From Gemmatimonadota bacterium (GTDB lineage Bacteria; Latescibacterota; UBA2968; UBA8231): 39,287 nucleotides of DNA. Under the pieces are notes generated by a model. The model saw nothing but the letters and a program-made list of their open reading frames with translations, did no database searches and was not told the DNA's origin. Numbering within the stretch: position 1 is the first letter of the stretch; the number at the start of each line of letters is the position of its first letter. Made by a program: the position numbers and the translations under genes. This document shows positions 1 to 28,068 of the stretch, piece after piece. Location of the stretch: NCBI GenBank assembly GCA_038128265.1, contig JAYPJE010000007.1:73121-112407 (forward strand), read 5' to 3'.

Positions 1-425
1 AGTTCACAGTGGGCGATTATCACTACAATAACCGCAACTACGAAGAGGCGCTCAAAGCCTATTCTGTGCTTATCGAGTCCTATGCCTCTACGCCGGAAAA
101 ACAGCGCGCGGAGGCACTTGTAGAAGAGTTAAGCGAAATCGAAGCGAGCTTGGATTACGCTCAGGTTATGGACAAATTCGAGTCGAAAGACTACGAGAAT
201 GCGATCAAGGGTTTCAAAGATATCATCGAGAAATACCCCGATACCTATACTCAGTTGGCAGCCTACTGCAATTTGGGACTCACCTACGAGATTCTCAGGC
301 AGTGGCCCCAGGCAGTTGAAAATTACGATCAAACCCTGGCGAGAGGGGAGGGCGATATCGAAAATTCAGACGTCGTCAATTTTGCTCGCCTGCATCGGGA
401 TTGGATCGTCGAAAACAGGCTATAA
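1..425 (+). CDS. Tetratricopeptide-repeat protein (BamD/YfiO/CpoB-like), 5'-truncated by the window edge
   Basis: Frame is open from the window start (..FTVGDYHYNNRNYEEALKAY..). TPR-like helices such as DYENAIKGFKDIIEKYPDT and AYCNLGLTYEILRQWPQAVENY. Confidence 0.8.
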   Translation, partial: FTVGDYHYNNRNYEEALKAYSVLIESYASTPEKQRAEALVEELSEIEASLDYAQVMDKFESKDYENAIKGFKDIIEKYPDTYTQLAAYCNLGLTYEILRQWPQAVENYDQTLARGEGDIENSDVVNFARLHRDWIVENRL

Positions 426-461: not shown

Positions 462-1130
462 ATGTCGGAAAATTTTATAGTCGGCCAGTTTCTCAAGGGC
501 GGTCCAATGATGTGGCCGCTGTTGATCTGTTCCCTCATTTCGATGGTCGTTGCCATCGACCGCCTATTGAGCTATATGCGTCTGCCTTCCGAGGAAGAAG
601 CCGAAGCACAATTATCGGAAGTGGAGTCGGTGCTGGAGAATGGCGGAGAAGCGGCCGCCGTAGAGCATTTTAAAGCGAATAAGGGCGTGCTTAATTTTGT
701 CTTTGCCGCGTTGCTTAAGCGCTATGACTCCCTCGTCTTAGAAAATAGGACCGACGTGGAGGATATGCGGCAGGAGCTGATTACGGTTACCGAGGAGGCC
801 GGTATTGACTATCTCGGTCGCTTGCTCAACGCCCTGGGAACAATCGGCGTGCTCGCTCCGCTTATGGGGTTGCTCGGAACGATCGTGGGTATGATCCGCG
901 CCTTTGACGCCATTGCCCAGGCCGGTGCCGGCGATCCGGCCGCCGTAGCCAGCGGTATTTCAGAAGCGCTGATTACAACCGCTTCGGGGCTGATCGTCGC
1001 CATTCCGACCATTGTATTTCACCGCTACCTGTCCGCTCGTGCCGACAAGGCATACAAGGAAATTGAACTCTACTGCCATGCGTTTGCCAATACGCTTATT
1101 GTCCGTTTTAGCAATCAGCGCGAGAGCTAG
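462..1130 (+). CDS. exbB: MotA/TolQ/ExbB proton-channel family protein
   Basis: GGPMMWPL N-terminal TM, LGTIGVLAPLMGLLGTIVGMIRAF and GISEALITTASGLIVAIP signatures; GGAGG RBS upstream. Confidence 0.93.
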   Translation: MSENFIVGQFLKGGPMMWPLLICSLISMVVAIDRLLSYMRLPSEEEAEAQLSEVESVLENGGEAAAVEHFKANKGVLNFVFAALLKRYDSLVLENRTDVEDMRQELITVTEEAGIDYLGRLLNALGTIGVLAPLMGLLGTIVGMIRAFDAIAQAGAGDPAAVASGISEALITTASGLIVAIPTIVFHRYLSARADKAYKEIELYCHAFANTLIVRFSNQRES

Positions 1131-1145: not shown

Positions 1146-1592
1146 ATGCCCAAAAGGCCAGCGCTAGCTCGACGGATAAAGGGTAAGGCGCGCAAAAATT
1201 CGCGTTTTGCCACCAGTATGGATCCGGACATGACGCCGCTGATCAACTGCATCTTTCTGCTGTTGGTTTTCTTCATGGTGGCGACGACCTTTCTGAATAC
1301 GAAAGGGTTAAGCGTCGACTTGCCCGGGGGGCAGGGCGACGATTCGTCGCGCGCTAGCAAAGACATCAATATCGTTATCGAAAAGGACGGTGCGATACAG
1401 GTCAACGGCGAACTGACGACTACGGAGCAGCTTGCCGAGCGGATTGGCACGATTGTTCAGTCCGATAATATCAAAAATGTGATTATTGAAGCGCATCGCA
1501 CGGTTCGGCACCAAAAAGTGGTCCGCGTTGTCGATATTGCGCGCGGGCAGGGCATCCAAGCAGTCGCTTTTGCCAAGTCGGCGGAGGGCTAG
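1146..1592 (+). CDS. exbD: ExbD/TolR family protein (TM Asp replaced by Asn)
   Basis: DMTPLINCIFLLLVFFMV TM motif followed by VDLP and a periplasmic ExbD domain; follows exbB with a GAGGAG RBS. Confidence 0.88.
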   Translation: MPKRPALARRIKGKARKNSRFATSMDPDMTPLINCIFLLLVFFMVATTFLNTKGLSVDLPGGQGDDSSRASKDINIVIEKDGAIQVNGELTTTEQLAERIGTIVQSDNIKNVIIEAHRTVRHQKVVRVVDIARGQGIQAVAFAKSAEG

Positions 1593-1594
1593 CC

Positions 1595-2044
1595 ATGGCG
1601 CGCAGAATGCAGACAAACGATGCCAACAACAACGATCTCAACCTGACGCCCCTGATCGATGCGGTTTTTCTTCTGCTGGTCTTTTTTATGGTTACGTCCG
1701 TTTTCGTTCAGGCCACCCAGCTGAAGATCGAACTGCCTATAGCCGACAACTACGACAAGATCGATCAGGAAAAAAAGCTGAATCTGCTTATTTCAGCCGA
1801 AGGACAACTCGAGTTTAATAGCCAGTTGGTCACCATGGGCCAGTTGACCAGCGTCATCGAGAACGAGCGCTTGCGCTCAGGTTCAGGCACGCTGATCGTA
1901 ACGGCCGATGCGCAAACGCCGCACGGTTTTGTGCTTGATGCGATGGAAATGGCGGTAATGGCGGGTGTGAGCAAGATCGACCTCGAAACCGGCGAAGACA
2001 AGGTAGCCGGAGAGGCCGGCGCCGCGGCCGCAGCAAAGGAATAG
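1595..2044 (+). CDS. exbD: ExbD/TolR family protein
   Basis: NLTPLIDAVFLLLVFFMV TM motif, IELP, and TADAQTPHGFVLDAME C-terminal motif. Confidence 0.92.
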   Translation: MARRMQTNDANNNDLNLTPLIDAVFLLLVFFMVTSVFVQATQLKIELPIADNYDKIDQEKKLNLLISAEGQLEFNSQLVTMGQLTSVIENERLRSGSGTLIVTADAQTPHGFVLDAMEMAVMAGVSKIDLETGEDKVAGEAGAAAAAKE

Positions 2045-2047
2045 CGA

Positions 2048-2842
2048 ATGACGTCCCTTCGTTTGAGTTCAATTGCCCTGTGTATGACCATTATCGCCAC
2101 GCTGAGTGGGTGCGCCTATCTGGCGAGTCTCATCCCCAGAGAGATGTACTATGAGGTTTCTCTCAAGCCAGTGCTGCCAGAGGGAAGGGGCGAATATCAG
2201 ATCGACCCGGATGATCCCCAGGTGGTTACATTCAGCCACGAAGGTATGGTCGTGCGGGTGCGGCCCTACACCGACGACGAACTCAACGCGCTCTATCCGC
2301 CGCTCTTTGACGGACGCCATACCAATCCCTATACCACCGACCAGCTCAACGTGGATCTCGGCTACGTGCCCCCGATCTTTATGGTGTTTGATGTCACCGT
2401 GGTCAACCAGACCTATTCCAAGATCGAATTTGATCCAGCCAAAACCATGCTGACGACCAATACGGGGCGCAAGCTGCGCTACTATGATCCTGGTAGGGCC
2501 GGTGAAGGGGTCGATCCCTTGGGCGGCAACCGCTTTAGCACGTATTACCAGACAGAGCGGGGCCGTTCGGGTATCGACAAGGACATCAACCTGGAGCGCA
2601 TGGGGCTAATCTACAAAACGGCATTCCACCGCTTTCGCCCTGTCTTTCGCGGCGACGAGCGCAGCGGCACGCTGACCTTTGACAAGCTACCCTCTGACGC
2701 TACGGAAGTCGTGCTTTCAGTAGACGACTTTGTCCTCTCTTTCGATGCAAGCGGCAATCCCGAACGGACCATTGACTTTGAGTGTCGCTTTACGGTCAGC
2801 CAAGGCATCGTTGAAAGCGAAGTAGATCCACTATTAGAGTAG
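2048..2842 (+). CDS. Putative lipoprotein of unknown function (Ig-like beta fold possible)
   Basis: Signal peptide ending in lipobox LSGC; beta-rich segments FDVTVVNQ and RSGTLTF; starts 3 nt after exbD. Confidence 0.7.
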   Translation: MTSLRLSSIALCMTIIATLSGCAYLASLIPREMYYEVSLKPVLPEGRGEYQIDPDDPQVVTFSHEGMVVRVRPYTDDELNALYPPLFDGRHTNPYTTDQLNVDLGYVPPIFMVFDVTVVNQTYSKIEFDPAKTMLTTNTGRKLRYYDPGRAGEGVDPLGGNRFSTYYQTERGRSGIDKDINLERMGLIYKTAFHRFRPVFRGDERSGTLTFDKLPSDATEVVLSVDDFVLSFDASGNPERTIDFECRFTVSQGIVESEVDPLLE

Positions 2843-2963: not shown

Positions 2964-4613
2964 ATGGTATTGTCGCGTTTGTCGCTGGCCCTGTGCTGGC
3001 TGCTAATAGCCTGCGGCGGCGATAGTCAAGAGCCGCCCTCTCTTTTGGCTCGCGTCGGGGAAAAATCCATCCACATAGATGATCTCAGGACATTTGGGCG
3101 CGCCATGGAGGGCGGCGATTCGCTGAGTATTGAAGCGCATCGTCAGAACCTCGAGACGCTCATTGATCGCGAAGTGTTGATCCTGGAAGCGCGCGCGTTG
3201 GGGTTGGAAAGCGATGCCGACTTTCAGGAAGTCCTGGCCGGCGATCTCGAGAGCCGACTGGCAGAGATGATGTTTAATAGGGAAGTAGCTGAGCGCTCTG
3301 AGCCGACTCCGGACGAGATTGAGGCGGCCTACGCCACGGGCGATTGGAATCAGCAGGTGGTCAGCATTGAATTATTCTTGCCCGATGAGGAAACGGCGCT
3401 GCGCGTGCGCGCAGAAATTCTCAACGGCATGGATATCTTCGAAGCCGGCAGGCTCTACTCGGTGGATCGCCTAATGCACATTCCGATGGGGGGCGCACAG
3501 CAGTTTGTCTACTCAAAACAGGATGGTCCGGCCGAAGTTGTACAGCGCGTTTTTCAGATTCCAGCCGGCAATATTTCGTCGCCGATACCGCTTTTTAAGG
3601 GTTTTGTCTTAGCCTACGTTGCGGAATATCGAGAAGTCGAACGGGCTGAAATTGCCGATGAGTTGGCGCGCTACGTTCGCAAGGAAAAGCGTCGCTTGCT
3701 GCGGGGTGCCTATTTACAGCACCTGAATAAGGCACTTAATCTGCAGTTTTCAACAGCTGGCCTAGCCCGCGCGGCGGACCATCTATCGCGTCTAAAAGAG
3801 GATGACTCGATGCCGCTGCCGGCCGACTCCAATGCGGTCGTCTATTCGTATGGAGATGTCTCGGTCGACCTTGGGGCCGTTGTCGGATTAATGCGCGGGC
3901 CTGCGCGGCGCTGGTCGGAAATCAACACCGAAGCCATTGTCGCAGAAATAAAGAATACCGTATTGCCAAACCTGCTGATGGCCGCCAATGCGCGCGAGCG
4001 CCAGATCGACACCTCGCCAGAATTTCTCGCGTGGAAGAACTGGCGCAGCGAGGATCTGCTGCTGTCGCTGCTGCGAAAAAACGTCTGCTCCGACATCCAA
4101 GTGTCCGAACAAGAGGTCGTTGCGCACTACCGAAAAGTGAAGCGGCGCTTTCGCATACCCGGCTACGCTCGGGTGCGCGATGTGCTAGTGGCAACGCTTG
4201 AGGAAGCCGATGCCCTGAAAGAAGCCGTTGAAGGTGGGGCGGATTTTGCGCAAATCATAGCGGAACGCTCGCTGCGCAAGGGAAGCAAGAAGGGCGTTTT
4301 CCGCGTCTTTGCTCTGCAGGCAAATAAGTACGGTGCCGGTTGGATGAATTACGTATTTAACGTGCCCGTAGGAACGCTCCAAGGGCCCGTGCAGGCTGAA
4401 GGGGGTTTTTCCCTGCTGGAAGTGGTAGAACGGGTGGAGGATGGCTATTATACGCTTGACGAGTCCAGGGTGCGCTCGGCGGTTACGCGCGATATGCAAA
4501 AAATAAAAGAGCGCACCGCGTTTAACGAATTTGTAAAGAGCGTGCGCGCAAAGCGCGCCGAGCAAATTACCCTTTACGCAGATAATCTGGCAGCCGTGGG
4601 GGCGCATCCGTAA
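2964..4613 (+). CDS. PrsA/SurA-like foldase lipoprotein with two degenerate parvulin domains
   Basis: Lipobox LIAC; LARVGEKSI..LETLIDREVLILEARALGL SurA-N-like segment; two repeats ..LNGMDIFEAGRLYSVD..ISSPI and ..GGADFAQIIAERS..QGPV..GFSLLEV. Confidence 0.8.
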   Translation: MVLSRLSLALCWLLIACGGDSQEPPSLLARVGEKSIHIDDLRTFGRAMEGGDSLSIEAHRQNLETLIDREVLILEARALGLESDADFQEVLAGDLESRLAEMMFNREVAERSEPTPDEIEAAYATGDWNQQVVSIELFLPDEETALRVRAEILNGMDIFEAGRLYSVDRLMHIPMGGAQQFVYSKQDGPAEVVQRVFQIPAGNISSPIPLFKGFVLAYVAEYREVERAEIADELARYVRKEKRRLLRGAYLQHLNKALNLQFSTAGLARAADHLSRLKEDDSMPLPADSNAVVYSYGDVSVDLGAVVGLMRGPARRWSEINTEAIVAEIKNTVLPNLLMAANARERQIDTSPEFLAWKNWRSEDLLLSLLRKNVCSDIQVSEQEVVAHYRKVKRRFRIPGYARVRDVLVATLEEADALKEAVEGGADFAQIIAERSLRKGSKKGVFRVFALQANKYGAGWMNYVFNVPVGTLQGPVQAEGGFSLLEVVERVEDGYYTLDESRVRSAVTRDMQKIKERTAFNEFVKSVRAKRAEQITLYADNLAAVGAHP

Positions 4614-4739
4614 AACTGCGGGCAGTGCGTTATTGGCCGAGGTTTAGCCGGCCCCATTCGATTGAGCATACCGAATACCTCTACGATTTGGGGTCGCGTG
4701 CGCTCAAAGCCCGTTCCTTTGGAGGGAAGTGATCTGACC

Positions 4740-6728
4740 GTGGCCGATGCAAAAGAGCAAGAGCGCTTTGAAATAATGCCCGAAGACGCGCCGTTTGAGC
4801 CGGGGTTCAATATCAAAACGCTCTGGGCGGCGCTCTTTGTGGGATTCGTCATGTTGCCTGGAGCCATTTACCTCGGTTTGGTGACGGGGCAGAGCATGGC
4901 CGGCGGCGCCGAGTGGGTGACGCTCATCCTCTTTATAGAGATTGCCAAGCGCACCTTTGTTCGTCTGCGCACGCAGGAGATTATCATTCTCTACTGGGTC
5001 GCTGGTGGCCTGGTGCTGATGGGGGGTAAGCTGGGCACGGGAGCCGACCTGTTTGGCGGTCCGTTTGGCGTGCTGATATGGGATCAGTACTTAATTCAAT
5101 CGCCTCAGGCCGATGGGTTGGCCGAGCACGTTCCGGATTGGGTGGTGCCGCCGCGCGGGTCGGACGCGCTGTTGGAGCGCAGTTTTCTGCACGCGGCCTG
5201 GATCAAGCCCATTTTCATACTGCTCGTGGCGGTGGTGCTGCAGCGCATCAACGCCCTCTCACTCGGCTATGCCCTCTTCCGCATTACGCACGATATAGAG
5301 CGTTTGCCTTATCCGATGGCCTACGTGCAGGCTGGGGGCGCTACGGCGCTGGCGGAGACCTCTTCGCAAAAGGAAGGCTGGCGCTGGCACGTATTTAGCA
5401 CGGGGACGTTTGTCGGGGCTGTTTGGGGGCTACTGTACGTCGTGGTGCCAACGCTGTCTTCCGTCTTCCTCACGGAGACGGTTTCCATCCTGCCCATTCC
5501 CTTCATCGACTTTACGGTGCCGATGAAGTCGGTGCTGCCGGCCGCAGTCATCGGTCTGGCGACCGATCTCATTCACGTACTCATCGGGTTGGTGCTGCCT
5601 TTTTGGGTCGTCGTGGGCGTCTTTTCCTCGTCTATACTGGTCAACCTGGTGGCCAATCCGCTGCTCTACGCGGGGGGGATATTGCATACCTGGGAACCGG
5701 GTATGTCGGCCATACCGACGATGATTGCCAACTCGTTTGACTTTTGGCTTAGCTTTTCCATTGGGGGAGCCATCGTCGTAGCTATCGTAGGTTTTAGCAC
5801 GGCATTTGTCTCACTGAGAGCGGCCCAGCGCTCGACGACCTCCGCGCTCGAGCGCGGCGGCCCCAGTCCGGAGCGCGGCGACATACGCATCGTTTATGCA
5901 TTGGGCATCTGGGCGCTGAGCACGCTTGCTTTTGTTGGTATGGTATACTATTTGGTGCCCCAATTCCCCTGGTGGATCACCGCATTCTTTGGCTTTGTGT
6001 GGACGCCTATTTACTCCTATATCGGCGCGCGTATGGTCGGTTTAACAGGCAGTCCACAGGGGGTCACGTTTCCCTATCTGCGCGAAGCTAGCTTTTACCT
6101 GTCCGGATATCAGGGCGCGGGTATTTGGTTTGCCCCCGTGCCGATTTTTCAGTGGGGTTATGAGGCGCAGACCTTTAAGCAACTCGAACTGACGCGCACT
6201 CGTTTTGGCTCGCTCATAAAAATGACGGCATTGACCCTCTTGGTCATGTTTGTTTGCTCGTTTTTGTTTTGGTCGCTTATTTGGAAGCTGGGGCCGATTC
6301 CCTCTTCGGCCTATCCCTATGTACAGAAGCTCTGGCCCTTTCACGCCACCATGCAGGCTTTTTGGGTTAAATCTACGCTGCCGGGCGCGGGTTCGAACCT
6401 GCTGACACAAATTATTCGCTGGGACTATATTGGCATCGGGCTGCTCTTTAGCGGCGTGCTCTACGCAGCGCTCCACGTGCTGCACGCACCCATGGCCATT
6501 TTCTACGGTTTCGTCGCCGGACTCGGCCAGTGGCCGCACTTTGTTATCCTGAACTTTATCGGGGCTATACTCGGGCGCTTCTATTTGCAAAAGCGCTTTG
6601 GCGAAGAGCGCTGGCGAGCCTATGCGCCGATCCTGCTGGCCGGTTATTCCTGCGGAGTTGGGCTTATTGGTATGAGTTCCATTGCCATCGCCCTGATTTC
6701 AAAAGCCGTTTCACAAGTCGTTTTTTAA
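4740..6728 (+). CDS. OPT/YSL-superfamily-like multi-pass membrane transporter
   Basis: Many TM helices; ERLPYPMA motif like the OPT E-x-L-x-[FY]-P motif. Start moved to GTG 4740 (GGAGGG upstream); the ORF track starts at TTG 4662. Confidence 0.7.
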   Translation: MADAKEQERFEIMPEDAPFEPGFNIKTLWAALFVGFVMLPGAIYLGLVTGQSMAGGAEWVTLILFIEIAKRTFVRLRTQEIIILYWVAGGLVLMGGKLGTGADLFGGPFGVLIWDQYLIQSPQADGLAEHVPDWVVPPRGSDALLERSFLHAAWIKPIFILLVAVVLQRINALSLGYALFRITHDIERLPYPMAYVQAGGATALAETSSQKEGWRWHVFSTGTFVGAVWGLLYVVVPTLSSVFLTETVSILPIPFIDFTVPMKSVLPAAVIGLATDLIHVLIGLVLPFWVVVGVFSSSILVNLVANPLLYAGGILHTWEPGMSAIPTMIANSFDFWLSFSIGGAIVVAIVGFSTAFVSLRAAQRSTTSALERGGPSPERGDIRIVYALGIWALSTLAFVGMVYYLVPQFPWWITAFFGFVWTPIYSYIGARMVGLTGSPQGVTFPYLREASFYLSGYQGAGIWFAPVPIFQWGYEAQTFKQLELTRTRFGSLIKMTALTLLVMFVCSFLFWSLIWKLGPIPSSAYPYVQKLWPFHATMQAFWVKSTLPGAGSNLLTQIIRWDYIGIGLLFSGVLYAALHVLHAPMAIFYGFVAGLGQWPHFVILNFIGAILGRFYLQKRFGEERWRAYAPILLAGYSCGVGLIGMSSIAIALISKAVSQVVF

Positions 6729-6851
6729 CGGGTTTGCAGGCCGATATTTCTTCGCGGCTTCTACGGCCCGACGCCGTTTTATTGATCCCCCAGAGATGCT
6801 TTGATGGAAATGAGAAGCGAGCCCAGCTGCGCACTATTCTGACGAAATGCC

Positions 6852-8756
6852 ATGACCTATAGATCGTTTATACTGGGCACCCTGGTGGTGCTGGCCGTGG
6901 TGTGTGGAGCACCCTATGCCATTTGGATGGTGCGCTCGTCGGAAATTACGTGGTCCTATTTCCCGACCAGCGTCGGCTTTTGTTTTGTCGCACTCTTTTT
7001 GCTCAATTCCCTGATACGGCGAGTGAGCGGTCGCTCCTTTCTTCGGCCAGCCGAATGGGCCGTTGTCGTAATCATGGGACTCGCCGCTACGGGTATCCCA
7101 ACCTTTATCGTCGGCACGCTGTTGGCTATAATCTCCAGTCCCTACTACGGCGCAACGCCCGAAAATGACTGGGAAGGCAATATTCACGCGTTCCTTCCGG
7201 ATTGGCTGGTGCCCAGTCCCGAAGGGGAGGCCATGCGCCACTTTTACGAGGGGCTACCCGCCGGACAGGACGTGCCCTTTGACGTCTGGGTCGGGCCCCT
7301 GTTCTGGTGGCTGAGCCTTATTTTTGCCGTTTACTTTATCTGCTTCTGTACCGTCGTGCTTTTTCGCCGTCAGTGGGTGGAAAATGAGCGGTTGGTTTTT
7401 CCGCTGATGGAAATGCCGCGGCTTCTTGTGGACGACGAGGGCCGTCATCTGCTGCACTCGAAGCTATTTTGGGCTGGGTGTGCTCTGCCGCTGTCCATGA
7501 TCCTGTTTAATGTGGTGGGTTTTTTCTACATCGGATTTCCGCAGATAAACTTTCACCATCCCGTTACGATCCAGCTGAGTCGCGATTTTCCCGCCCTTTC
7601 GCTCATGCTCTACTTTCCCGTCATCGGGTTTATGTATTTGGTGAGCACATCCGTCTCGCTCAGCATCGTCGTCTTTTACCTGATCGCCGTCCTACAGGAG
7701 GGCATTACCAATCGCATTGGCTACGACGTCACCCGTCCAGATGCCTTTGTCTGGGGAATGCAGTCGCTCTCTTGGCAAGCCTGGGGGGGCTTTACCGCGA
7801 TGGTGCTCATCAGCTTATGGATGGCGCGGAGACATCTGGCAGCGGTCGCAAGGCAGGTCTTTATCGGGCACAGGACCGTGGACGACAGCGAGGAGATGGT
7901 ATCCTATCGCACGGCGGTGTACGGTTTTCTTTTCGGTTTGCTCTACGTAGTGGGCTGGCTGTGGAAATCGGGCATGGACCTGCACGTCGCCCTGCTCTTT
8001 ATCGGTGCCGTATTGATTGCCTATTACGGCGTTACGCGTCTGGTGATCCAAGCGGGTATTTACTTTCTGACCCCACCGGTGGGTGCTCAGGCGTTTGCTC
8101 TAGCCATAACTGGGACGAGTATTGGCGGGCATAATTTAGTGGCCCTGGGACTTTCCTACGCATGGTTTGGTGACGTGCAGTCGCTCTTTATGCCGGCGGC
8201 AGCACACGGGGCTCGCCTGGCCGAAATCTATCGCGTGCGTCGCGGGATGGCCTGGGCCTTGGGGGCCGCCGTATTGATCGGCTTTGTCGCCAATATCTAT
8301 TTTGTTCTGACCCTTTGCTATAAGTTTGGCGCGGGCAATTTTGGCTCCTGGTACTTTGTCGCAGGCGGTGGTGCTGGAGGCATGGCCTTCAACGGAGTCA
8401 TTCGCCATTTCAACGATCCCTGGCCAACGGATCTAAACAAGCTGAGCTACTTTGCCATCGGTGCGTTTTCCTATGCGGTTCTGGCATTTTGTCAGTACCG
8501 CTTTTATTGGTGGCCGCTATCACCCGTTGGTATCGCCGTCGCGCCGCTGTGGATGACGCGCCTGATCGTATTTTCTGTGTTTTTGGCCTGGGTGAGTAAG
8601 AGCGCGATTATGCGCTATGGAGGCATTCGCGCCTACCGCACGGCGCGGCCATTTTTCATGGGGTTAATCGCGGGTTATTTTCTCGGCGTGGGCATCTCGT
8701 ACTGCGTCGATGCCATTTGGTTTATGGGGGATGGGCACGTTTACTTTCACGGGTAG
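6852..8756 (+). CDS. DUF6785/DUF6784-type multi-pass membrane protein (paralog 1)
   Basis: PYYGATPENDW, FYEGLP, RRQWVENERLVFP, WWPLSPVG and YRTARPFFMGLIAG motifs shared with two other ORFs in the window. DUF name is from recollection. Confidence 0.75.
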   Translation: MTYRSFILGTLVVLAVVCGAPYAIWMVRSSEITWSYFPTSVGFCFVALFLLNSLIRRVSGRSFLRPAEWAVVVIMGLAATGIPTFIVGTLLAIISSPYYGATPENDWEGNIHAFLPDWLVPSPEGEAMRHFYEGLPAGQDVPFDVWVGPLFWWLSLIFAVYFICFCTVVLFRRQWVENERLVFPLMEMPRLLVDDEGRHLLHSKLFWAGCALPLSMILFNVVGFFYIGFPQINFHHPVTIQLSRDFPALSLMLYFPVIGFMYLVSTSVSLSIVVFYLIAVLQEGITNRIGYDVTRPDAFVWGMQSLSWQAWGGFTAMVLISLWMARRHLAAVARQVFIGHRTVDDSEEMVSYRTAVYGFLFGLLYVVGWLWKSGMDLHVALLFIGAVLIAYYGVTRLVIQAGIYFLTPPVGAQAFALAITGTSIGGHNLVALGLSYAWFGDVQSLFMPAAAHGARLAEIYRVRRGMAWALGAAVLIGFVANIYFVLTLCYKFGAGNFGSWYFVAGGGAGGMAFNGVIRHFNDPWPTDLNKLSYFAIGAFSYAVLAFCQYRFYWWPLSPVGIAVAPLWMTRLIVFSVFLAWVSKSAIMRYGGIRAYRTARPFFMGLIAGYFLGVGISYCVDAIWFMGDGHVYFHG

Positions 8757-8814
8757 TGCGCCGTAGCCGTAAGGGCTCTTAGCCCTGTTTGGTGTGGTTA
8801 TAAGGGAGTTCGCT

Positions 8815-11800
8815 ATGAATAAACTGCTCAGTGGAGCCGCCTTGGTCTTTGCGCTGGGAATGGTGCTGGCGTTGGCCTCCGGCGATCCGCAGCGAATCAA
8901 CGCACGGGTGAATGCCTTTTTCGGCTGGCAGCCAACCGCTCCGCAGGCCGAGCGGCTGGTAGACGAAGAAGAGGCTGGAGCCCTGAGAGCGCTGGTTGCG
9001 GAGATTCGCCGCCAGGACGTGGCGGCCGAAATCGAGCGCTTTGCTTCTATGGGGTCGCGCGTTACAGGATATCCAGGAGAACGTCGCGCCTACGAGTATA
9101 TCAGTGATCGCTTCGCCCAACTGGGATTAGAAGATGTGCGCAGCGAGGCGTTTGAGGTCGCCGTGCCAATGGACAAGGGGGGGAGGCTATACCTCCCGGG
9201 CGGAATAGTAAAAGACCTCCACAGCTTGTGGCCCAATGGGGTGCGCACGCCTTCGCTTCCCGCAGGGGGAGTGGAAGGGCCGCTCGTCTACGGCGGCAAG
9301 GGCACGCTGGAAGAGGTCGATGGCAAGGTCTTGGATGGGGCGATTGTCCTGCTGGATTTCGACGGAGGACAAAACTATTTAAACCTGGCTACGCTGGGGG
9401 CGCGAGCGGTCGTCTTTTTCGACAACGGGGGGGTTAACCGCGAGCAGGCCGCCGACAAATTTCTCAAGGTATCGGTTGATGTGCCGCGGTTCTGGATCGA
9501 ACGCCAGGATGCACTGGAACTGGTAGAGAAGCTGCGGGAGGCCCCCGTTCCGGTGCGCGTTGAAGCGACGATGGATTGGGAAGCGGTGGAGGCGCGCAAT
9601 ATCTACGGCTGGCTCCCCGGCTCAGAGGCGATGATGCCACCCAAAAGCCGCGAGGGCGATCAGGCGTGGAAGGAGCAGGTCATCGTCGTGCAGGCCTATT
9701 ACGACGCGATGTCGGTCGTGCCTGCTCGCGCGCCGGGCGCGGAAAATGCAGCCGGTATAGTCGCCCTGCTCAAGCTGGTCGAAGCACTCAGGGAACAGCG
9801 ACCGCACTACTCGGTGCTCTTCCTGGCTACCTCGGGGCACTTTCAGGGGCTGGAGGGCATCAACGACTTTCTCTATCGGCACAGCCGCGGCAGCGAATAC
9901 TTTCGCGAGCGCATGGCCGATGCCGAGCGCATTGATTTTGACCTCATGCTCTCCCTCGATCTTTCGAGCCACGGGCAGCGCAGCGCTTCCTTTGGCATGG
10001 GAACCTTCTACAACCCCGAGTGGCAAACCGACAACTATGTCAAATACATGCTCACGCCCTATTCAAAGCGCCTGAGCCAGGCTGTCGAAGAGATTTTCGT
10101 TGACTCTACGCGCCACTATGAAGGAATTGCCCCCCCCAAGCGCACCTGGAAAAACTACATGCCGATCCCGCTGGCCTTTGCCAGCGAAGCGGCGGCCTTT
10201 GTCGGACAAAAAGCCCTAGCGCTGGCCACAGCGAACGATGCGCGCCGATCCATCGACACACCCCTAGACGTGCCCGAAGCAATGAATATGGGCAACCTCA
10301 CTCGGCAAATCCGCACGCTGGCCGCGATGCTGGCCTGGGCCGGGCGCGATGCCGAGTTGCTCAAGCCGGGCAAATTGGAGCTCGAAGACTACGGGCACAG
10401 TCTTGCCGGTTCGATTTACTGGTTTGATCGCGACGTAAACTTTGCCGTGCCCAAATCGCCCGTGGCCGGTGCGCTGGTAACCTACCAGCAGCAGGGGCCC
10501 AATTCCGTGGCTGGCGTGCGCACGCTGATGGTGCGCAAGGCCGACGACGAAGGGCGCTTCCGCTTTGACATCATGCGCAACCGCTATGAAAACACCATCA
10601 AAGCCTATGAGATTGACGCGCGCGGTCAGATTGTTTCGGCGCCCGATATGGGACAGGAGGGGGACGAGACCTATCCAATGGCCCATCCGTGGGGGTGGTG
10701 GGAAAACGAAATGCTGCAGGTCTTATTCAAATGCCGGGCCCTGAGCCTGTTTGAAACGGTGGACTCCCGTTACCTCTCGGTGCTCGATCACGTAACGGTG
10801 CTCGACGAGCGCGATGGCGTTCCGCAGTCGTGGGGGGCGGACTACGTCGAGCGCCAGAGCAACGAAGAAGGCAAAGTGACGCTGGCTTCCGTCGTCTATG
10901 CCCAGCCCGGCACGCGGGTAAAAGTGCTGATGAGCACCAGTCTGTTTGGCGTGCGCTATCTGCTGAGCGGGGCCCCGGATGCGCTTTTGGAACACCCGGT
11001 GCAGCCGGAAGAAGTCGATGAGGGCGTGATGAAGCGCGCGCTGGGCACGGGTTATCCGATCGATGCGGGTACTGTGCTGCGCCCGAGCTATGCGGCGGCG
11101 CGCGATATGTGGACGCTCGACGATGCGCGCATTAAGCAGCTGGCTCGCTACGGCGTGCGCAACGATAAGTTTATGCGCCTGCACGACGAGGCGCGCTCGG
11201 CGCTGGTGCGGGCGCGCGAACACCTCGAAGCGCTTCGCTATAGCCAGTTTAAAGCGAGCACGCGGGAGGCATGGGGTCTGGAAGGTCGCGGGTATCCAGA
11301 TATCAAAGCAACGGCCGATGACACCGTATACGGCGTGATTTTCTACTTTGCCCTGCTGCTGCCGTTCTCCTTCTGCTGCGAACGCCTCTTTTTTGGCTTT
11401 GCCGATGTGCGCAGACAGATGCTGGGAGCGGCGCTCTTCTTTCTCGGCATCTTTCTCATCATGCGCTTTATTCACCCGGCGTTTAAGCTGTCTTCCTCAC
11501 CGTATATCATTTTTCTCGCCTTTGTAATTTTTGCTATTGGTGGCACGGCGCTCATGATGATACTGGGCCGCTTTACGCGCGAGGTGAGCCAGCGCAAGCG
11601 GGCTTCGGCCGGCGTGCACGAAGCCGATATCGGACGCATAAGCGCGACGGCTGCGGCGGTCGCCTTAGGTATTTCGAACCTGCGCAAGCGCAAGGTGCGC
11701 ACCCTACTTACAGTTGTCACATTGACACTGTTAACATTTACGGCACAGGCATTTACATCTGTGCAAAGTTATTTGAAGTACTACCAAATTCCGCGACCCA

Positions 11801-13431
11801 ACGCCCCCAGTTACGAGGGGGCTCTGCTGCGCGATCGCGGCTGGAAGGGCATGCAGCTTTCGGTTCTCGACTACGCGCAGAGTGCCTTTGGCGAGCAGGG
11901 CCAGGTGCTGCCGCGTTCCTGGTTGTCGACCCACCTGATTGGTGAGCGTGCCTACATTGACGTGCAGCGCAGGGAGACGGGGGCCGAGAGCTTTGCCTTT
12001 GCCCTTATGGGGGTGGTGCCCGAAGAGCGCGATCTGATGGGCTTTGGCCAAATGCTGGTCGGTGCAGAAAGCCGCTTCTTTGCCGAAGGGGAGCGCGATG
12101 TATGTATTTTGCCCAAGGCGCTGGCCGATATACTCGGTATCGGGGCCCAGGACGTTGGCCGCGTCGAGGTGTGGATTATGGGGCAGGCCTACCGCGTCAT
12201 TGGGTTAATCGACGGCGAGCGGGTCGATGCCTTGCGCGATCTGGACAACGAGAGCCCCATGCCGGTCGATACGGTAGCCGAGGCGCAAAAGATGCAAGAA
12301 ATGGCCAATCTCGATCCGCGTCTGATGGACACGGCGGCCATCGAGACCTTTACGCACCTGCTGGCCAACAACGTCGTGCTGCTGCCCTATCAGAAAGTCG
12401 TCGATCTGGGGGGGACGCTGCGCTCAATCGCCCTTGCCGGCTTTTCCGATCGCCAGGTTTTGCTGGACGAGGTCGAGGATTTTGTTTCGCGAGTCGCCGT
12501 GCCGCTCTTTGTCGGCGCGGATGAGCAGGTGCGCGTCTATACGTCTATGGGCTCGGCTTCCCTGTCGGGGATGGGCAATCTATTCGTGCCGATGCTCATC
12601 GCCGCGCTCATCGTGCTCAATACGATGTTAGGCTCGGTCTACGAGCGCTCGGCTGAAATCGGCGTTTACAGCTCGGTGGGGCTGGCTCCAGGCCACATTT
12701 CATCGCTCTTTATCGCCGAGAGCCTAGTCTTTGCGATCGTCGGGGCGGTGCTGGGTTATCTGGTGGGCCAGTCTACTACGCTGCTGCTGACGCGCTACGA
12801 TCTGCTGGGGGGGATGTTTCTCAACTATTCCTCGCTGTCGGCCATCACATCGACGCTCATTGTCATGGCTACTGTAGTCCTTTCCACGCTCTATCCGGCG
12901 CGCAAAGCCGCGTCGATGTCCGTGCCCGATGTGACGCGGCGCTGGACGTTTCCCGAACCCGATGGGGATCGCTGGCAGTTTGATTTTCCCTTTACGCTGG
13001 CGCGCAACGATGCGCTGGGCAGCGGGGCTTATCTGCACCGGGTATTTTCCTCCTACGGCGAGGGTTCGGTGGGGGATTTCATGACCGAGGGGGTCTATTT
13101 TCGTCGGGAGCGCAGCGGCACCGATCCGGTCTACGCGCTCGAACTGATGGTCTGGCTCGCTCCGTACGATCTGGGGGTAAGCCAGCGCGTCGTGCTGCGC
13201 ATGCTGCCGACAGAGGATATTGCCGGCATCTACCGCATTGAAATGGAGCTCGAGCGGGTCAGCGGCGACGTGGCCTCATGGAAGCGCCTCAACACGGGTT
13301 TTCTCAACGTGCTGCGCAAGCGCTTTCTGGTGTGGCGCACGATTCCGCAGGAAATGCGCGAAGAATACCGCCTGCAGGGAGATGCACTGGCCGGAGCGGG
13401 CTCTCCTCAGGAGGCACCTGTCGGCAGTTAG
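8815..13431 (+). CDS. Large fusion protein: signal peptide, PA domain, degenerate M28 peptidase-like domain and MacB/FtsX-type ABC permease
   Basis: ATG 8815 with AAGGGAG RBS. SRVTGYPG, VEGPLVYGG (PA), AYYDAM..APGAENAAG (M28-like), NLRKRKVRTLLT, LNTMLGSVYERSAEIG and LYPARKAA (FtsX/MacB). Confidence 0.85.
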   Translation: MNKLLSGAALVFALGMVLALASGDPQRINARVNAFFGWQPTAPQAERLVDEEEAGALRALVAEIRRQDVAAEIERFASMGSRVTGYPGERRAYEYISDRFAQLGLEDVRSEAFEVAVPMDKGGRLYLPGGIVKDLHSLWPNGVRTPSLPAGGVEGPLVYGGKGTLEEVDGKVLDGAIVLLDFDGGQNYLNLATLGARAVVFFDNGGVNREQAADKFLKVSVDVPRFWIERQDALELVEKLREAPVPVRVEATMDWEAVEARNIYGWLPGSEAMMPPKSREGDQAWKEQVIVVQAYYDAMSVVPARAPGAENAAGIVALLKLVEALREQRPHYSVLFLATSGHFQGLEGINDFLYRHSRGSEYFRERMADAERIDFDLMLSLDLSSHGQRSASFGMGTFYNPEWQTDNYVKYMLTPYSKRLSQAVEEIFVDSTRHYEGIAPPKRTWKNYMPIPLAFASEAAAFVGQKALALATANDARRSIDTPLDVPEAMNMGNLTRQIRTLAAMLAWAGRDAELLKPGKLELEDYGHSLAGSIYWFDRDVNFAVPKSPVAGALVTYQQQGPNSVAGVRTLMVRKADDEGRFRFDIMRNRYENTIKAYEIDARGQIVSAPDMGQEGDETYPMAHPWGWWENEMLQVLFKCRALSLFETVDSRYLSVLDHVTVLDERDGVPQSWGADYVERQSNEEGKVTLASVVYAQPGTRVKVLMSTSLFGVRYLLSGAPDALLEHPVQPEEVDEGVMKRALGTGYPIDAGTVLRPSYAAARDMWTLDDARIKQLARYGVRNDKFMRLHDEARSALVRAREHLEALRYSQFKASTREAWGLEGRGYPDIKATADDTVYGVIFYFALLLPFSFCCERLFFGFADVRRQMLGAALFFLGIFLIMRFIHPAFKLSSSPYIIFLAFVIFAIGGTALMMILGRFTREVSQRKRASAGVHEADIGRISATAAAVALGISNLRKRKVRTLLTVVTLTLLTFTAQAFTSVQSYLKYYQIPRPNAPSYEGALLRDRGWKGMQLSVLDYAQSAFGEQGQVLPRSWLSTHLIGERAYIDVQRRETGAESFAFALMGVVPEERDLMGFGQMLVGAESRFFAEGERDVCILPKALADILGIGAQDVGRVEVWIMGQAYRVIGLIDGERVDALRDLDNESPMPVDTVAEAQKMQEMANLDPRLMDTAAIETFTHLLANNVVLLPYQKVVDLGGTLRSIALAGFSDRQVLLDEVEDFVSRVAVPLFVGADEQVRVYTSMGSASLSGMGNLFVPMLIAALIVLNTMLGSVYERSAEIGVYSSVGLAPGHISSLFIAESLVFAIVGAVLGYLVGQSTTLLLTRYDLLGGMFLNYSSLSAITSTLIVMATVVLSTLYPARKAASMSVPDVTRRWTFPEPDGDRWQFDFPFTLARNDALGSGAYLHRVFSSYGEGSVGDFMTEGVYFRRERSGTDPVYALELMVWLAPYDLGVSQRVVLRMLPTEDIAGIYRIEMELERVSGDVASWKRLNTGFLNVLRKRFLVWRTIPQEMREEYRLQGDALAGAGSPQEAPVGS

Positions 13432-16492: not shown

Positions 16493-16610
16493 TGCGCTTC
16501 TCCGGTGGAAGGGGTTGCAGCAAAGTATAGTGTATCCCAGCTGGCAACAAGGGGCTTGCTGCGCTTTCTGCAATGGAGGAAATTACAGCAAAATTCAAAG
16601 GAGGCGCGTC

Positions 16611-17426
16611 GTGCGAGTGCACCCAACCTTTAGTTCCGATCAGCGCGGAGAAATCATCGATTTTTTTCGGGGACAGCAATACGCCGTAGTCGGTGACGCT
16701 CTTTCTACAGCAGAAGTGGCTGCACTCAACCAATTTGTCGATCGCTCGAAGGGGCAATGCCCAGCGCTGTGGGGAGTAGGCAGCGCGGATATCCACACGC
16801 ACGGCCAGATTCTCGTCGATCATCCGGAAATGGATTCTTTTGCTCGTCATCCTCTGACATTGGGTTTAGTGGCAGAGATTTTGGGGCCACAGCCGCGCTT
16901 TGCACAAATTGATTTTCGCGACGTGCCGGCCGGCGTGGGCGATAGGGCGGCGCTGCCCTTCCACCGCGACCGCGGCTTTGTGCCTGCTGCGTATTGGGAA
17001 GAAAAGCAGGAGGAATGCGTTTACGTGTGCGCTATCTATTATTTGAGCGATGTGGGAGAGGGAGACACGTGTTTTTGCGTGGTGCCAAACAGCCACCCCT
17101 ACGCAACGCGAGAAGAAGCAGAGCAGCAAATGGGGCCTGCCTATGCGGAGATCCCCATTCGCGGTCCAGCGGGTACGATGGTGCTCTATAACATAGCCAT
17201 ATACCATACGCGGGTGCTTGGCCGGAGCGATGCCGGCCGCCGCACGATGCACCATTATTTTAGTCGCGAGGGCAATCCACCTCTGACCAATTGGGCGCTG
17301 GTGCCGCGGCGGTTAGCTGAGCACGAAGACCCTGAAACGCAGGCCTACTACAGCCAGTGGACGGAGGCGATGCGAGCCTATGCGGACGCGGGGTTTACGC
17401 GCGCAGATTCGGGGAAAAACACATAG
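16611..17426 (+). CDS. Phytanoyl-CoA dioxygenase (PhyH) family Fe(II)/2OG dioxygenase
   Basis: FHRD (HxD), YYLSDV, VVPNSH, GPAGTMVLY..IYH motifs; GTG start at 16611 after AGGAGG. Confidence 0.85.
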   Translation: MRVHPTFSSDQRGEIIDFFRGQQYAVVGDALSTAEVAALNQFVDRSKGQCPALWGVGSADIHTHGQILVDHPEMDSFARHPLTLGLVAEILGPQPRFAQIDFRDVPAGVGDRAALPFHRDRGFVPAAYWEEKQEECVYVCAIYYLSDVGEGDTCFCVVPNSHPYATREEAEQQMGPAYAEIPIRGPAGTMVLYNIAIYHTRVLGRSDAGRRTMHHYFSREGNPPLTNWALVPRRLAEHEDPETQAYYSQWTEAMRAYADAGFTRADSGKNT

Positions 17427-20329: not shown

Positions 20330-20507
20330 AAAGTTGACTCCGTTGTTGGCTTGATACTATACGCAAAAAAGGGAAATACGGCGAGTGAGCATTGACGTTG
20401 GGGGAGGGAAGGGAATACTAAATCAGCGCAAACTGCGCCGATTCGCCTTGCAAGCAATGCGGCCACTCGCTATATATAGCACCGTGAATGGATTGAGCAA
20501 AAACGCG

Positions 20508-21785
20508 ATGAGGGCGGTGGTCGCCAGGCGCTGGCTGTGGTGTGTTGCCCTGCTGTGCTTTGGCTGCAGTGCGCCCGAGCGCATCCGCCCGGGCGAACCC
20601 GTTCGGGTTGTGCTGTGGGAATTCGGCGGCGTGCCCGGGGTAATCGAGTGGAGCAAGGGGGCTGTCGAACGCTTTAATGCCGAACGGGACGACATTGAGA
20701 TCGAGTTGGAGTTTCGCGATTGGGCCACTCAGCGCGAGAGTTTGATTAGCACGACGATCCTTGGGGAAGGACCCGATATCATCCGGGTACACCACAAGTA
20801 CTCCGTCGAATTTGGCGAATTGGGCGGCCTCTATGCGCTGGAAAATTTTTCGGATTTTCCGGACGTTAAAGAGCGCATTCTAGACAACGTATGGGAGCCG
20901 GTGGCATACGGCGGCAAGCACTATGGGCTGCCGGTCACAATGCTTCCCTTTATCCTAGCAGTAAACAGAGATATCCTGGCCAAAAACGGCGCGCAGGTGC
21001 CGCAAACCTGGGAGGAAATGCGCGCCATGGGGCCCGGTCTTAAGAAGGCGGGCATCCACACCTTTACCATGCCTGGAGGGGTTAATTTAGACACGGCCTA
21101 TCGCTTCTTGCCGCTGCTGTTTCGTGCCGGAGGACGCGTGTTTAACAAGGACTGGACGGCGGCTGCCTTTAACGGCCCAGCCGGTGTGGCTGCGCTCAGC
21201 TTTCTGGTCGAAATGAAAGAAGCCGGCTATATGCCATCGGCCAGTGCGGCCTACCGCTTTGACGAGAATGCCGCCCATTGGGCAACGGGTAAAGCTGCAT
21301 TGTCCATCGAGGGGCCGTGGTGGCAAAATGCGATGTCCGGCAACTACGACTTTGATTTAGATAAGCTGCAGTTGGCACAGGTGCCCGGTCCGGTGCAGCG
21401 CTATGAAGAGCATCCGCCGGGTACGCTTCTCGACGTGGTTATGGTGGCTATAACCGGCTATAGTCCGGTTCCCGAGCACGCCTGGGAAGTGCTCAAAGCG
21501 CTCTACGTTGAAGATCCCGTGTGGCGCACGCCCAATCCAAATTTAGGGGGCATGCCCACGCAGAAAGCGGCCTATGCACCCGGCGTGCAAAGCGATTATA
21601 TCGGGCTGAATGAACTGGCAGAGGCCGGTCGCAGCGGCATAAGTTGGCCCGGCCATCCCGGCATAACGGAGATTCAACGCCACATCGCCGATGCGGTGAA
21701 TATGGCGCTAACGGGCACTCTGTCACCGCAAGAAGCACTCGACGGGGCCGCGGTGGAAGTCGACGAAATTCTGAGCGATTATTGA
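20508..21785 (+). CDS. Carbohydrate ABC transporter substrate-binding lipoprotein (CUT1)
   Basis: Lipobox CFGC; GEGPDII, GKHYGLP, PQTWEEM, GKAALSIEGPW and SPQEALD motifs. Start is uncertain (20508 or 20517). Confidence 0.88.
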   Translation: MRAVVARRWLWCVALLCFGCSAPERIRPGEPVRVVLWEFGGVPGVIEWSKGAVERFNAERDDIEIELEFRDWATQRESLISTTILGEGPDIIRVHHKYSVEFGELGGLYALENFSDFPDVKERILDNVWEPVAYGGKHYGLPVTMLPFILAVNRDILAKNGAQVPQTWEEMRAMGPGLKKAGIHTFTMPGGVNLDTAYRFLPLLFRAGGRVFNKDWTAAAFNGPAGVAALSFLVEMKEAGYMPSASAAYRFDENAAHWATGKAALSIEGPWWQNAMSGNYDFDLDKLQLAQVPGPVQRYEEHPPGTLLDVVMVAITGYSPVPEHAWEVLKALYVEDPVWRTPNPNLGGMPTQKAAYAPGVQSDYIGLNELAEAGRSGISWPGHPGITEIQRHIADAVNMALTGTLSPQEALDGAAVEVDEILSDY

Positions 21786-21786
21786 C

Positions 21787-23515: not shown

Positions 23516-23531
23516 GGAGACCATACGTCCG

Positions 23532-26976: not shown

Positions 26977-26992
26977 AGGGTGGTTTGAGCGC

Positions 26993-28033: not shown

Positions 28034-28068
28034 ATGACTCGTCTAACAATCGGAGAGAGTGGATACGC

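Follow-up and report, generated by a model that had tools for sequence, protein, structure and literature searches.

Three adjacent genes on the + strand of a 39,287-nt stretch of DNA from a Gemmatimonadota bacterium (Latescibacterota in the GTDB; contig JAYPJE010000007.1), hereafter called the window, encode two membrane proteins related to the OPT superfamily, P1 and P2, and a giant protein, P3, that joins a peptidase-like periplasmic head to an FtsX-type permease. Comparison of related loci indicates that the three genes are functionally linked, and the three proteins are very probably physically associated, since the linkage is conserved through shuffling of the gene order and since P3 and the DUF6785-type protein occur as a natural fusion. 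We propose that P3 captures a substrate for the OPT-fold carriers as part of a trans-envelope nutrient importer, in which the products of three co-travelling genes, c6, c4 and c2, would form the outer leg; taken as a whole, this reading falls only just short of an even chance. A preliminary description of the window had reported three co-oriented membrane genes whose composition matched no characterized system. The open reading frames (ORFs) of P1, P2 and P3 do fill positions 4662–13431 of the + strand and represent genuine genes, and no paper was found on DUF6785, on DUF6784 or on the combination of FtsX, M28 and OPT, nor, in the portions of the literature on Latescibacter, oligopeptide transporters and FtsX that were available, any that concerns the module.

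Conservation and Rearrangement of the Gene Trio

Gene content was compared, by tblastn and by ORF clustering, in the best 80 of 336 confirmed relatives of the P1 family (alignment A1), taken from contigs of one genome per species; both the calling and the clustering of ORFs were simple heuristics. The 80 loci (L-numbers; G000 is the genome under study and G001 etc. are genomes of its relatives) come mostly from Latescibacterota metagenome-assembled genomes (MAGs) or chromosomes; the others are MAGs filed under Gemmatimonadota or, in three cases, under Planctomycetota. Loci with the type of set found in the window are called type A and those with a second, paralogous set type B. Among the 57 loci that are well flanked, with 8 kb or more to either side of the P1 homologue, P3 is present in 52, a DUF6785 gene in 51 and both in 48; co-occurrence of the trio in other genomes, chosen beforehand as a test of the preliminary description, is therefore borne out. 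Three of the five loci without P3 (L013, L015 and L023) are of type A, where P3 otherwise comes after P2, and in these three the DNA ends without a P3 match. Of the other two, L026 has neither P3 nor P2 within its shorter flanks and L031 lacks all of the module genes.

The related loci are kin and these counts therefore overstate their independence; the retention of the trio through rearrangement and duplication is a stronger argument. At least four gene orders are found. The order P1-P2-P3 occurs in the window, L001–L003 and L028, whereas in L005–L025 P1 is followed by inserted genes and then by P2-P3. The second paralogous set (L032–L067) has the order P3-P2-P1, and single loci have P3-P1-P2 (L068, L074) or P2-P1-P3 (L069). 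Between the window's set A and set B, P1 is the most conserved member at ∼71% identity, as against ∼51% for P3 and ∼38% for P2.

The linkage extends to covalent fusion. In the host genome a single uninterrupted frame of 2135 aa (G000:C13:16095–22499) runs from a P3-like protein with its tail through a short linker into DUF6785 and DUF6784, and frames of 2123–2179 aa surround the P3 matches in G001, G002, G004 and G016, which represent two genera. A search for longer relatives of P2 returned four public clusters of 2120–2135 aa with FtsX, DUF6785 and DUF6784. The position of the junction fits the predicted topology, in which the C terminus of P3 and the N terminus of DUF6785 would both be cytoplasmic.

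The host genome (4.29 Mb in 102 contigs, 84% complete) holds five P3 sets. Besides that of the window (C7), there is a set in the order c6-c2-c4-P3-P2-P1 (C65), a P3-P2-P1 set with a PorV-like barrel gene upstream (C1), a set consisting of P3 and a P1-like gene only (C4) and the P3-DUF6785 fusion, which has no P1 nearby (C13). All five have at least one OPT-fold partner and three have both. The preliminary description had pictured P1 and P2 as a heterodimeric carrier. An obligate heterodimer is not supported in view of C4, where P3 has only a P1-like partner, and of C13, where it has only the fused DUF6785; on the strength of these two sets, P3 appears to require a minimum of one OPT-fold partner rather than the pair.

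Some loci carry additional genes within the trio. In L018 (12061–15981) and at equivalent positions in L005–L025, ∼4 kb lie between P1 and P2 and hold, besides two opposite-strand genes for NHL-repeat β-propellers, one or two others, among them a + strand ORF that is LRR-like; in the window this insert is lacking. In about 10 type-B loci a PIN-domain (VapC-like) gene (cluster 20; L046:7557–7937) lies between P3 and P2, a position taken elsewhere by other small genes (clusters 25 and 27). In the window P1 and P2 are separated by 123 nt and P2 and P3 by 37–58 nt. Consensus scans found 5 promoter-like sites (6.9 ± 3.0 in shuffled sequence) and 24 terminator-like sites (18.1 ± 4.7), both at the level of the shuffles and thus uninformative.

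Relationship of P1 and P2 to the OPT Superfamily

The longest ORF of P1 (4662–6728) encodes 688 aa, the public record (P0004) has 676 aa and a start at the GTG at 4740 would give 662 aa, a length that most orthologues share and that fits this start. A hydropathy scan shows at least 12 strongly hydrophobic segments. Homologues number 1454 at E ≤ 1e-3 among 8000 scored candidates; the 120 that were listed are 59–100% identical to P1 and 503–861 aa long, and several relatives are named "peptide transporter" by NCBI. P1 has no Pfam or NCBIfam match at E ≤ 0.1, and P0004 has none at E ≤ 10. A precomputed match to the OPT model (PF03169) is present in 4 of the 120 homologues, and three of these four passed the gathering score on rescanning: P0106 with 28.7 bits, P0115 with 26.5 bits and P0113 with 39.6 bits. 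Residues 186–650 of P0106 align to positions 132–619 of the 623 in the profile, and OPT matches occur in 2 of the 13 members of alignment A1. Because P1 lies below the threshold and homologues 63–65% identical to it (P0106 and P0113) lie above, P1 is best described, from these scores, as a relative of the OPT superfamily rather than a model-level member.

P2 belongs to DUF6785 (PF20581; 338 bits, E 1.1e-100, gathering 25) and DUF6784 (PF20580; 77 bits, E 1.3e-21, gathering 26.4), both well above threshold, as had been proposed, and is below the threshold of the OPT model in the Pfam scan. A distant relationship to P1 had also been suggested. By pairwise BLASTP the two proteins align with an insignificant, yet collinear, E of 0.15, and the comparison by hhalign of the P1 family (A1, 13 sequences) with DUF6785 (A2, 10 sequences) supports the suggestion with a probability of 95.2% and an E of 2.5e-8 over 307 columns. 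The Atlas neighbours of P2 are DUF6785 clusters from Armatimonadota, Latescibacterota and Bathyarchaeota, one of which has OPT in 11% of its members.

OPT and Yellow-Stripe-like (YSL) proteins (TCDB 2.A.67) are proton-coupled importers of peptides or metal chelates. The likeness of P1 and P2 to them consists in the OPT scores of the close homologues of P1 and in the homology of DUF6785 to P1. They differ in that both proteins fall below the OPT model and have no solved relative by sequence, and in that P1 and P2 are tied to a giant FtsX-type partner, whereas known OPT proteins work alone.

Architecture of P3

The longest ORF of P3 (8794–13431) encodes 1545 aa; the public record (P0124) has the 1538 aa given in the preliminary description, which places the start at the eighth codon, nt 8815. 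There are 705 homologues at E ≤ 1e-3 among 8000 scored candidates, and a profile of the C-terminal half finds 1393 representative clusters (50% identity) at E ≤ 1e-30, of which the best 150 are all close full-length matches. Pfam assigns FtsX (PF02687; 54.9 bits, cut-off 25.5) and Peptidase_M28 (PF04389; 30.8 bits, cut-off 21.3), and the PA domain, at 20.8 bits, stays under its cut-off of 23.9. In a crude hydropathy scan eight segments stand out as hydrophobic (aa 11–29, 844–862, 879–897, 905–923, 972–990, 1264–1282, 1306–1324 and 1348–1366), which we interpret as an anchor at the N terminus, three additional helices and the four helices of the FtsX module.

The protein was modelled in two parts, both of moderate confidence: the head (aa 31–872, alignment A4 of 20 sequences, mean pLDDT 66.8) and the C-terminal part (aa 862–1545, alignment A3 of 22 sequences, mean pLDDT 69.0). 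Foldseek matches aa ∼60–525 to the Aneurinibacillus aminopeptidase 2ek8 (E 8.5e-20) and to the transferrin receptor TfR1 (1de4_C, E 1.7e-16), and also to BSAP, PaAP and GCPII. Residues 526–721 have no confident structure (pLDDT below 50), and aa ∼730–840 are modelled as helical. The FtsX module matches LolE (9xro_E, E 6.2e-8) and MacB (5gko_A, E 7.8e-7), and its periplasmic domain matches that of MacB (3ftj) with a target-normalized TM score of 0.57. The union of a large PA/M28-like region with a MacB/FtsX permease, as first described, is in this way upheld by Pfam and by Foldseek alike, and P3 has the FtsX domain and the four-transmembrane (TM) module with a periplasmic domain between TM1 and TM2 by which a type VII ATP-binding cassette (ABC) permease is recognized. 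Conservation in the family is highest in TM2–4 (0.78), followed by the linker with TM1 (0.77) and the three extra helices (0.74).

The cytoplasmic tail has many invariant aromatic residues, and most of its ten-residue blocks have a mean pLDDT of 72–91, with two blocks at 63 and 68. A START/SRPBCC-like fold was considered for the tail; the Foldseek matches are weak (E 0.026–0.042) and we do not rely on them. In two MAGs labelled Planctomycetota (L077:783–9893 and L078:1–9231) P3 reaches 3036–3076 aa; it carries a Big_5 Ig-like domain in addition and is extended by ∼1300 residues at its N terminus. Downstream lies a P1-like gene (an 858-aa ORF in L078, a tblastn match in L077), and no DUF6785 gene was found in either locus.

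P3 shares with type VII systems (MacB, LolCDE, FtsEX, YbbAP and YtrEF) its FtsX domain, and its four-helix module with the large TM1–TM2 periplasmic domain superposes on MacB, LolE and LolC; as with FtsX and LolC, its design seems suited to cooperation with partners in the periplasm. It differs from these systems in its three extra TM helices, its ∼840-aa PA/M28-like head and its ∼155-aa cytoplasmic tail, in the lack of a cis ATPase at the 80 loci of the module, and in its obligate linkage, and sometimes fusion, to OPT-fold carriers. We know of no OPT-carrier pairing in the type VII ABC family.

The Peptidase-like Site of the Head

The positions of the site were taken from HMMER alignments of P3 to 2ek8 and to the Aeromonas aminopeptidase 2anp and were followed through 124 family sequences (120 public sequences and 4 paralogues from the host genome). 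The M28 scheme we take to be a set of co-catalytic di-zinc ligands (His, Asp, Glu, Asp/Glu and His) with a general-base Glu. In P3 the first His is replaced by Tyr302 (Tyr in 67 sequences, His in 35, Phe in 21 and Asn in 1), the bridging Asp by Glu317 (Glu in 122 of 124), the catalytic Glu by His349 (His in all 124) and the ligand Glu by Phe350 (Phe in 123). Asp389 is kept at its canonical site, and the last His is apparently Asp488 (123 of 124), in a motif that was aligned by eye. P3 thus has the fold of M28 and lacks its di-zinc ligands and general base. Because the canonical residues are substituted, the head is not a di-zinc aminopeptidase; at the same time, the invariance of the replacements indicates that its pocket is under strong selection. 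The earlier term "pseudo-peptidase" is a fair one for a non-canonical site of this kind, and a rewired single-metal site is possible.

The head shares its PA-inserted M28 fold with the PA-domain aminopeptidases (2ek8, BSAP and PaAP) and the absence of catalytic residues with the catalytically inactive transferrin receptor. From both it differs in being tethered to a permease, in the invariance of its substituted site residues and in a further conserved periplasmic region of ∼200 aa.

A Wider Module with c6, c4, c2 and ExbBD

The genes c6, c4 and c2 travel with both main paralogous sets; c2 is present in 50, c4 in 46 and c6 in 39 of the 57 well-flanked loci. Sixteen loci have the order c6-c2-c4-P3-P2-P1, and 7 more have c2-c4-P3-P2-P1 with no c6 gene within the fetched part. 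In 22 loci, the window among them, the order is ExbB-ExbD-(ExbD)-c4-c2-P1, and in those loci of this kind whose DNA extends far enough, ExbB comes after c6 and a 1090-aa TPR protein, the order c6-TPR-ExbB-ExbD being conserved in type-A loci. The full-length orthologue of the TPR protein (L018:2581–5853) matches many TPR families. Judged by these gene orders, the upstream barrel/ExbBD cluster and the trio belong together, and the module is larger than the trio, taking in a barrel-like gene, a lipoprotein and a SurA-like lipoprotein, which goes beyond the preliminary description. The genes of the module that lie in the window, with the regions of P3, are collected in Table 1.

Table 1. Positions in the window of the module genes and of the regions of P3
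Feature	Position	Strand	Remarks
TPR protein (cluster 8), C-terminal end	3..425	+	TPR Pfam matches; full protein ∼1090 aa
ExbB/TolQ/MotA-type proton channel	462..1130	+	PF01618, E 8.7e-30
Two ExbD/TolR genes	1146..1592, 1595..2044	+	PF02472, E 5e-26 and 1e-25
c4, lipoprotein of no known family	2048..2842	+	264 aa; lipobox-like LSGC
c2, putative SurA-like periplasmic chaperone lipoprotein with PPIase domain	2964..4613	+	Rotamase_2, E 4.4e-15; lipobox-like IAC
P1, predicted divergent OPT-superfamily polytopic membrane protein	4740..6728	+	longest ORF from 4662
P2, DUF6785+DUF6784 polytopic membrane protein	6852..8756	+	634 aa
P3, giant protein with PA/M28-like head and FtsX permease	8815..13431	+	longest ORF from 8794
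P3 aa ∼60–525, PA-inserted M28 aminopeptidase fold	8971..10368	+	confident model; Foldseek
P3 aa 526–840, conserved periplasmic region, then helical region	10369..11313	+	conservation 0.69, 0.62
P3 aa 844–923, three additional TM helices preceding the FtsX module	11323..11562	+	conservation 0.74
P3 aa 972–1366, MacB/LolC-type FtsX module	11707..12891	+	TM1, ∼270-aa periplasmic domain, TM2–4
P3 aa 1381–1535, conserved cytoplasmic C-terminal domain	12934..13398	+	β-α-β4-α; DUF6785 junction in fused forms

The c6 protein is ∼800–1000 aa long; its only Pfam hit is an SlpA_C barrel at E 0.004, below the cut-off, and no TonB-dependent-receptor family is matched. An Atlas look-up returned only unnamed clusters, the nearest named one being TonB-dependent-receptor-like at 0.89, which we treat as a lead only. 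A second c6-like gene in the host genome (G000:C7:60118–64013) is followed directly by a c4-like gene (63285–64001), and this adjacency suggests that the two form barrel-lipoprotein pairs. The c2 protein of the window has the PPIase domain and no SurA_N match, and its type-B paralogue has weak SurA_N_2/3 matches below the cut-off and no PPIase domain. No TonB gene was identified adjoining ExbBD. The place of c4 after ExbB-ExbD-ExbD would be that of a TonB, an assignment that was ruled out, c4 being a lipoprotein without a match to TonB or to any other Pfam family. The PorV-like small barrel gene of set C1 (PF19572, E 1.7e-7) lies at G000:C1:1265–2305 (L101:1265–2305), directly upstream of its P3.

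An Orphan ATPase as Candidate Motor

A BLAST screen with a query that finds type VII ATPases genome-wide detected no ABC ATPase among the 1083 ORFs of the 80 loci and the window, except that of the window's ribose-type importer. Around the five sets of the host genome the nearest ABC ATPase is 12–94 kb away, or off the contig, and belongs to another transporter. An iterative FtsX search of this genome found the five P3 paralogues and four ordinary permeases, and all four of the latter have an ATPase within 3 kb.

One ATPase is left over. The product of G000:C3:54153–55004 (L085:6154–7005, − strand) has 283 aa and all the canonical motifs, and has its best match in LolD (E 1.6e-66), with 224 bits where the equivalog cut-off is 307.75; next come the MacB nucleotide-binding domain, DarD, DevA, YbbA and FtsE. 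It has an N-terminal extension of ∼40 aa. No FtsX gene lies on its 125-kb contig, where its neighbours are unrelated (a pyruvate dehydrogenase (PDH) E1, a short-chain dehydrogenase/reductase (SDR), a response regulator, a PQQ dehydrogenase, UvrB and DnaK). Orthologues in relatives are 81–98% identical, and in all six genomes checked there is no FtsX ORF within ∼8 kb of the orthologue. One orphan motor beside five motorless permeases is a suggestive pairing, and the FtsX module may be driven in trans by this single ATPase, shared by the paralogous sets, a tentative proposal that we hold to be somewhat more doubtful than not.

Docking of P3 (aa 940–1545) with the orphan ATPase gave ipSAE scores of 0.48, 0.48 and 0.45, rated as weak support, with at least 60% of the contacts agreeing between runs and a partner pLDDT of at least 72; none of the three controls scored above 0.00. 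In calibration 116 of 157 solved complexes and 2 of 215 mismatched pairs came up to the pass mark, and the range of scores up to 0.60 holds only 18 of the 157 solved complexes together with both of the passing mismatches.

Genomic Context and Substrate Class

P3 is present in all 31 relatives searched, with 2–7 matches per genome, and the host genome has 21 DUF6785 genes above the cut-off, against none in 14 control genomes. Near the sets and the free-standing DUF6785 genes lie genes for a sulfatase, PhyH, FG-GAP/ASPIC proteins, MR_MLE dehydratases, ROK kinase, MFS_2 and SSF carriers, BKACE, Ldh_2 and GFO/IDH/MocA oxidoreductases. Pfam scans of the genes around the paralogous sets found no peptidase or siderophore family. 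The presence of enzymes for sugars and sulfated glycans, and the lack of a peptidase family, point to sugars or sulfated-glycan products as the substrate more than to peptides. A peptide substrate was considered and is disfavoured on these grounds, and the peptide, glycopeptide or chelate named in the preliminary description finds no support among the surrounding genes. Five sets placed amid catabolic genes fit a role in nutrient uptake.

Two further DUF6785+DUF6784 genes without a P3 partner lie in the window among sugar-type genes (17434–19440 on the − strand and 30360–32306 on the + strand). The first adjoins a PhyH dioxygenase gene (16515–17426) and a CBM9-like gene, and the second is followed by an MFS gene and by genes for a xylose-isomerase-like TIM barrel, GFO/IDH/MocA and MR_MLE proteins. 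PhyH adjoins DUF6785 or the fusion in the window (16515–17426), in about 12 type-B loci (with cluster 17 immediately ahead of cluster 0; L046:18457–19272) and in G000:C13 (L103:8054–8935), and this recurrent pairing may hint at the substrate class of DUF6785.

Two sugar-type ABC importers occupy positions 20385–29109 of the window. The first is made up of a binding protein (SBP_bac_1) and a pair of BPD_transp_1 permeases; the second, of ribose type, has Peripla_BP_4, BPD_transp_2 and a duplicated ATPase with the signature LSGGN. They are followed by an ORF without a Pfam match (26747–28033) and an ADH_N protein (28069–29109).

Discussion

In the importer that we propose, P3, probably a dimer like other MacB-type permeases, would sit in the inner membrane with its large head in the periplasm. 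The head, having lost the di-zinc site and kept a strictly conserved pocket, would bind or present a substrate. Through its membrane part and cytoplasmic tail P3 would be bound to one or two OPT-fold secondary carriers, P1 and/or P2, which would move the captured oligomeric substrate across the membrane. The barrel-like c6 protein, c4 and c2 would provide an outer-membrane and periplasmic leg, joined in type-A loci, including the window, by the TPR protein and ExbB/ExbD, and the FtsX module could be driven in trans by the shared orphan ATPase of LolD/MacB type. A more elaborate version, in which an ExbBD-linked giant barrel and lipoprotein deliver an oligomeric substrate to a MacB-type mechanotransmission module powered by the LolD-like ATPase that all five paralogous permeases would share, and the dead-peptidase head then loads OPT-fold proton symporters, would make the importer dual-energized; this we consider unlikely. 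A periplasmic capture element working with a secondary carrier has functional analogues in the binding-protein-dependent TRAP and TTT transporters, and a barrel with a lipoprotein, energized by ExbBD in the TonB-dependent case, has them in SusCD and TonB-dependent loci; the occurrence of multiple paralogous sets among catabolic genes is a further point of analogy with all of these. The analogy is of function only, no sequence relationship having been found and c6 and c4 having no Pfam family above threshold.

Several observations weigh against the importer. P1 itself does not reach the gathering score of the OPT model (PF03169, 25.8 bits), and sequence and profile searches of the PDB chains with P1, A1 and A2 gave no match at E ≤ 10. 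The related loci come almost all from one lineage and are not independent, and the assignment of c6 as outer-membrane-barrel-like is weak. To our knowledge MacB, Lol and FtsEX modules occur only in outward-acting or non-transporting systems and never in importers, and the SurA-like chaperone, the lipoproteins and the barrel fit a route of export or biogenesis equally well. As regards the motor, the docking result is weak and generic; since a permease with a nucleotide-binding domain is a textbook-like pair, the pass may reflect likeness to solved complexes. The phylogenetic profile of the orphan ATPase against P3 is uninformative, because all 31 relatives have both P3 and such ATPases and the profile therefore cannot discriminate, and the orphan ATPase could serve something else.

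The same parts could be assembled into a machine for export or envelope biogenesis, in which P3, like LolCDE or MacB, would drive a lipid-anchored or amphipathic molecule, be it a lipoprotein, a glycolipid or a polymer of the cell surface, out of the inner membrane's outer leaflet. The OPT-fold proteins would then serve as flippases or feeders, and the SurA-like lipoprotein would carry the cargo to the c6 barrel. LolE, LolC and MacB, to which the fold of the FtsX module is closest, act outward, and the co-travelling of two lipoproteins with a barrel-like gene, as well as the PorV-like barrel upstream of the C1 set, would suit such a machine. We nevertheless think it unlikely, as OPT-superfamily proteins are known as importers, five paralogous sets amid genes for catabolic enzymes and sugar transporters are more readily explained by nutrient acquisition than by a housekeeping role in biogenesis, and the genome already has ordinary pairs of FtsX permease and ATPase. 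A different reading, essentially that of the preliminary description, is that the motor has been lost and P3 is a static receptor or scaffold, in effect a binding protein tethered to the membrane, for OPT-fold proton symporters. The absence of an ATPase gene in or near the 80 related loci and the five sets of the host genome agrees with this, as does the conserved C-terminal cytoplasmic domain, where partners could dock and which leads straight into DUF6785 in the fused forms. That TM2–4 and the linker with TM1 are the best conserved parts of P3 (0.78 and 0.77), and that a conserved orphan type VII ATPase exists, makes a motorless P3 improbable in our judgement.

Control of periplasmic partners by an FtsEX-type module is established, FtsEX acting on EnvC or PcsB, and the head might by analogy bind or process an extracellular cue, possibly as a rewired single-metal hydrolase, with FtsX controlling the carriers or a periplasmic enzyme. 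The invariant His and Phe with the retained Glu and Asp at the former metal site could bind one metal; however, the module includes no conserved partner of regulator or hydrolase type, and the multiplicity of the sets and their catabolic context argue for transport, which leaves a sensory or processing role very unlikely. That the three are independent membrane proteins sharing no more than their regulation is likewise highly improbable. The opposite-strand NHL-repeat genes that separate P1 from P2-P3 in many type-A loci speak for such mere neighbours, and on account of them the trio cannot always be one transcript; yet the linkage survives at least four rearrangements and the duplication of the whole set, and P3 and DUF6785 are covalently fused in several genomes.

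New here are the six-gene unit with the outer-membrane leg proposed for it, its connection to the barrel and ExbBD genes upstream, the census of five sets and the orphan ATPase as a concrete candidate for the missing motor. If the proposed importer is real, secondary importers would have taken as their capture subunit a fold otherwise known only in ABC machines that act outward (MacB, Lol and FtsEX). The dual-energized version, if true, would give type VII ABC modules their first role in import and would make the first hybrid of this type between an ABC system and a secondary carrier. The P3 family is large and unstudied, and existing annotations of its members and their partners go no further than "FtsX-like permease," "peptide transporter" or "hypothetical." Given the five sets and 21 DUF6785 genes of this single genome, the systems described here could be among the main routes of nutrient uptake of the organism.

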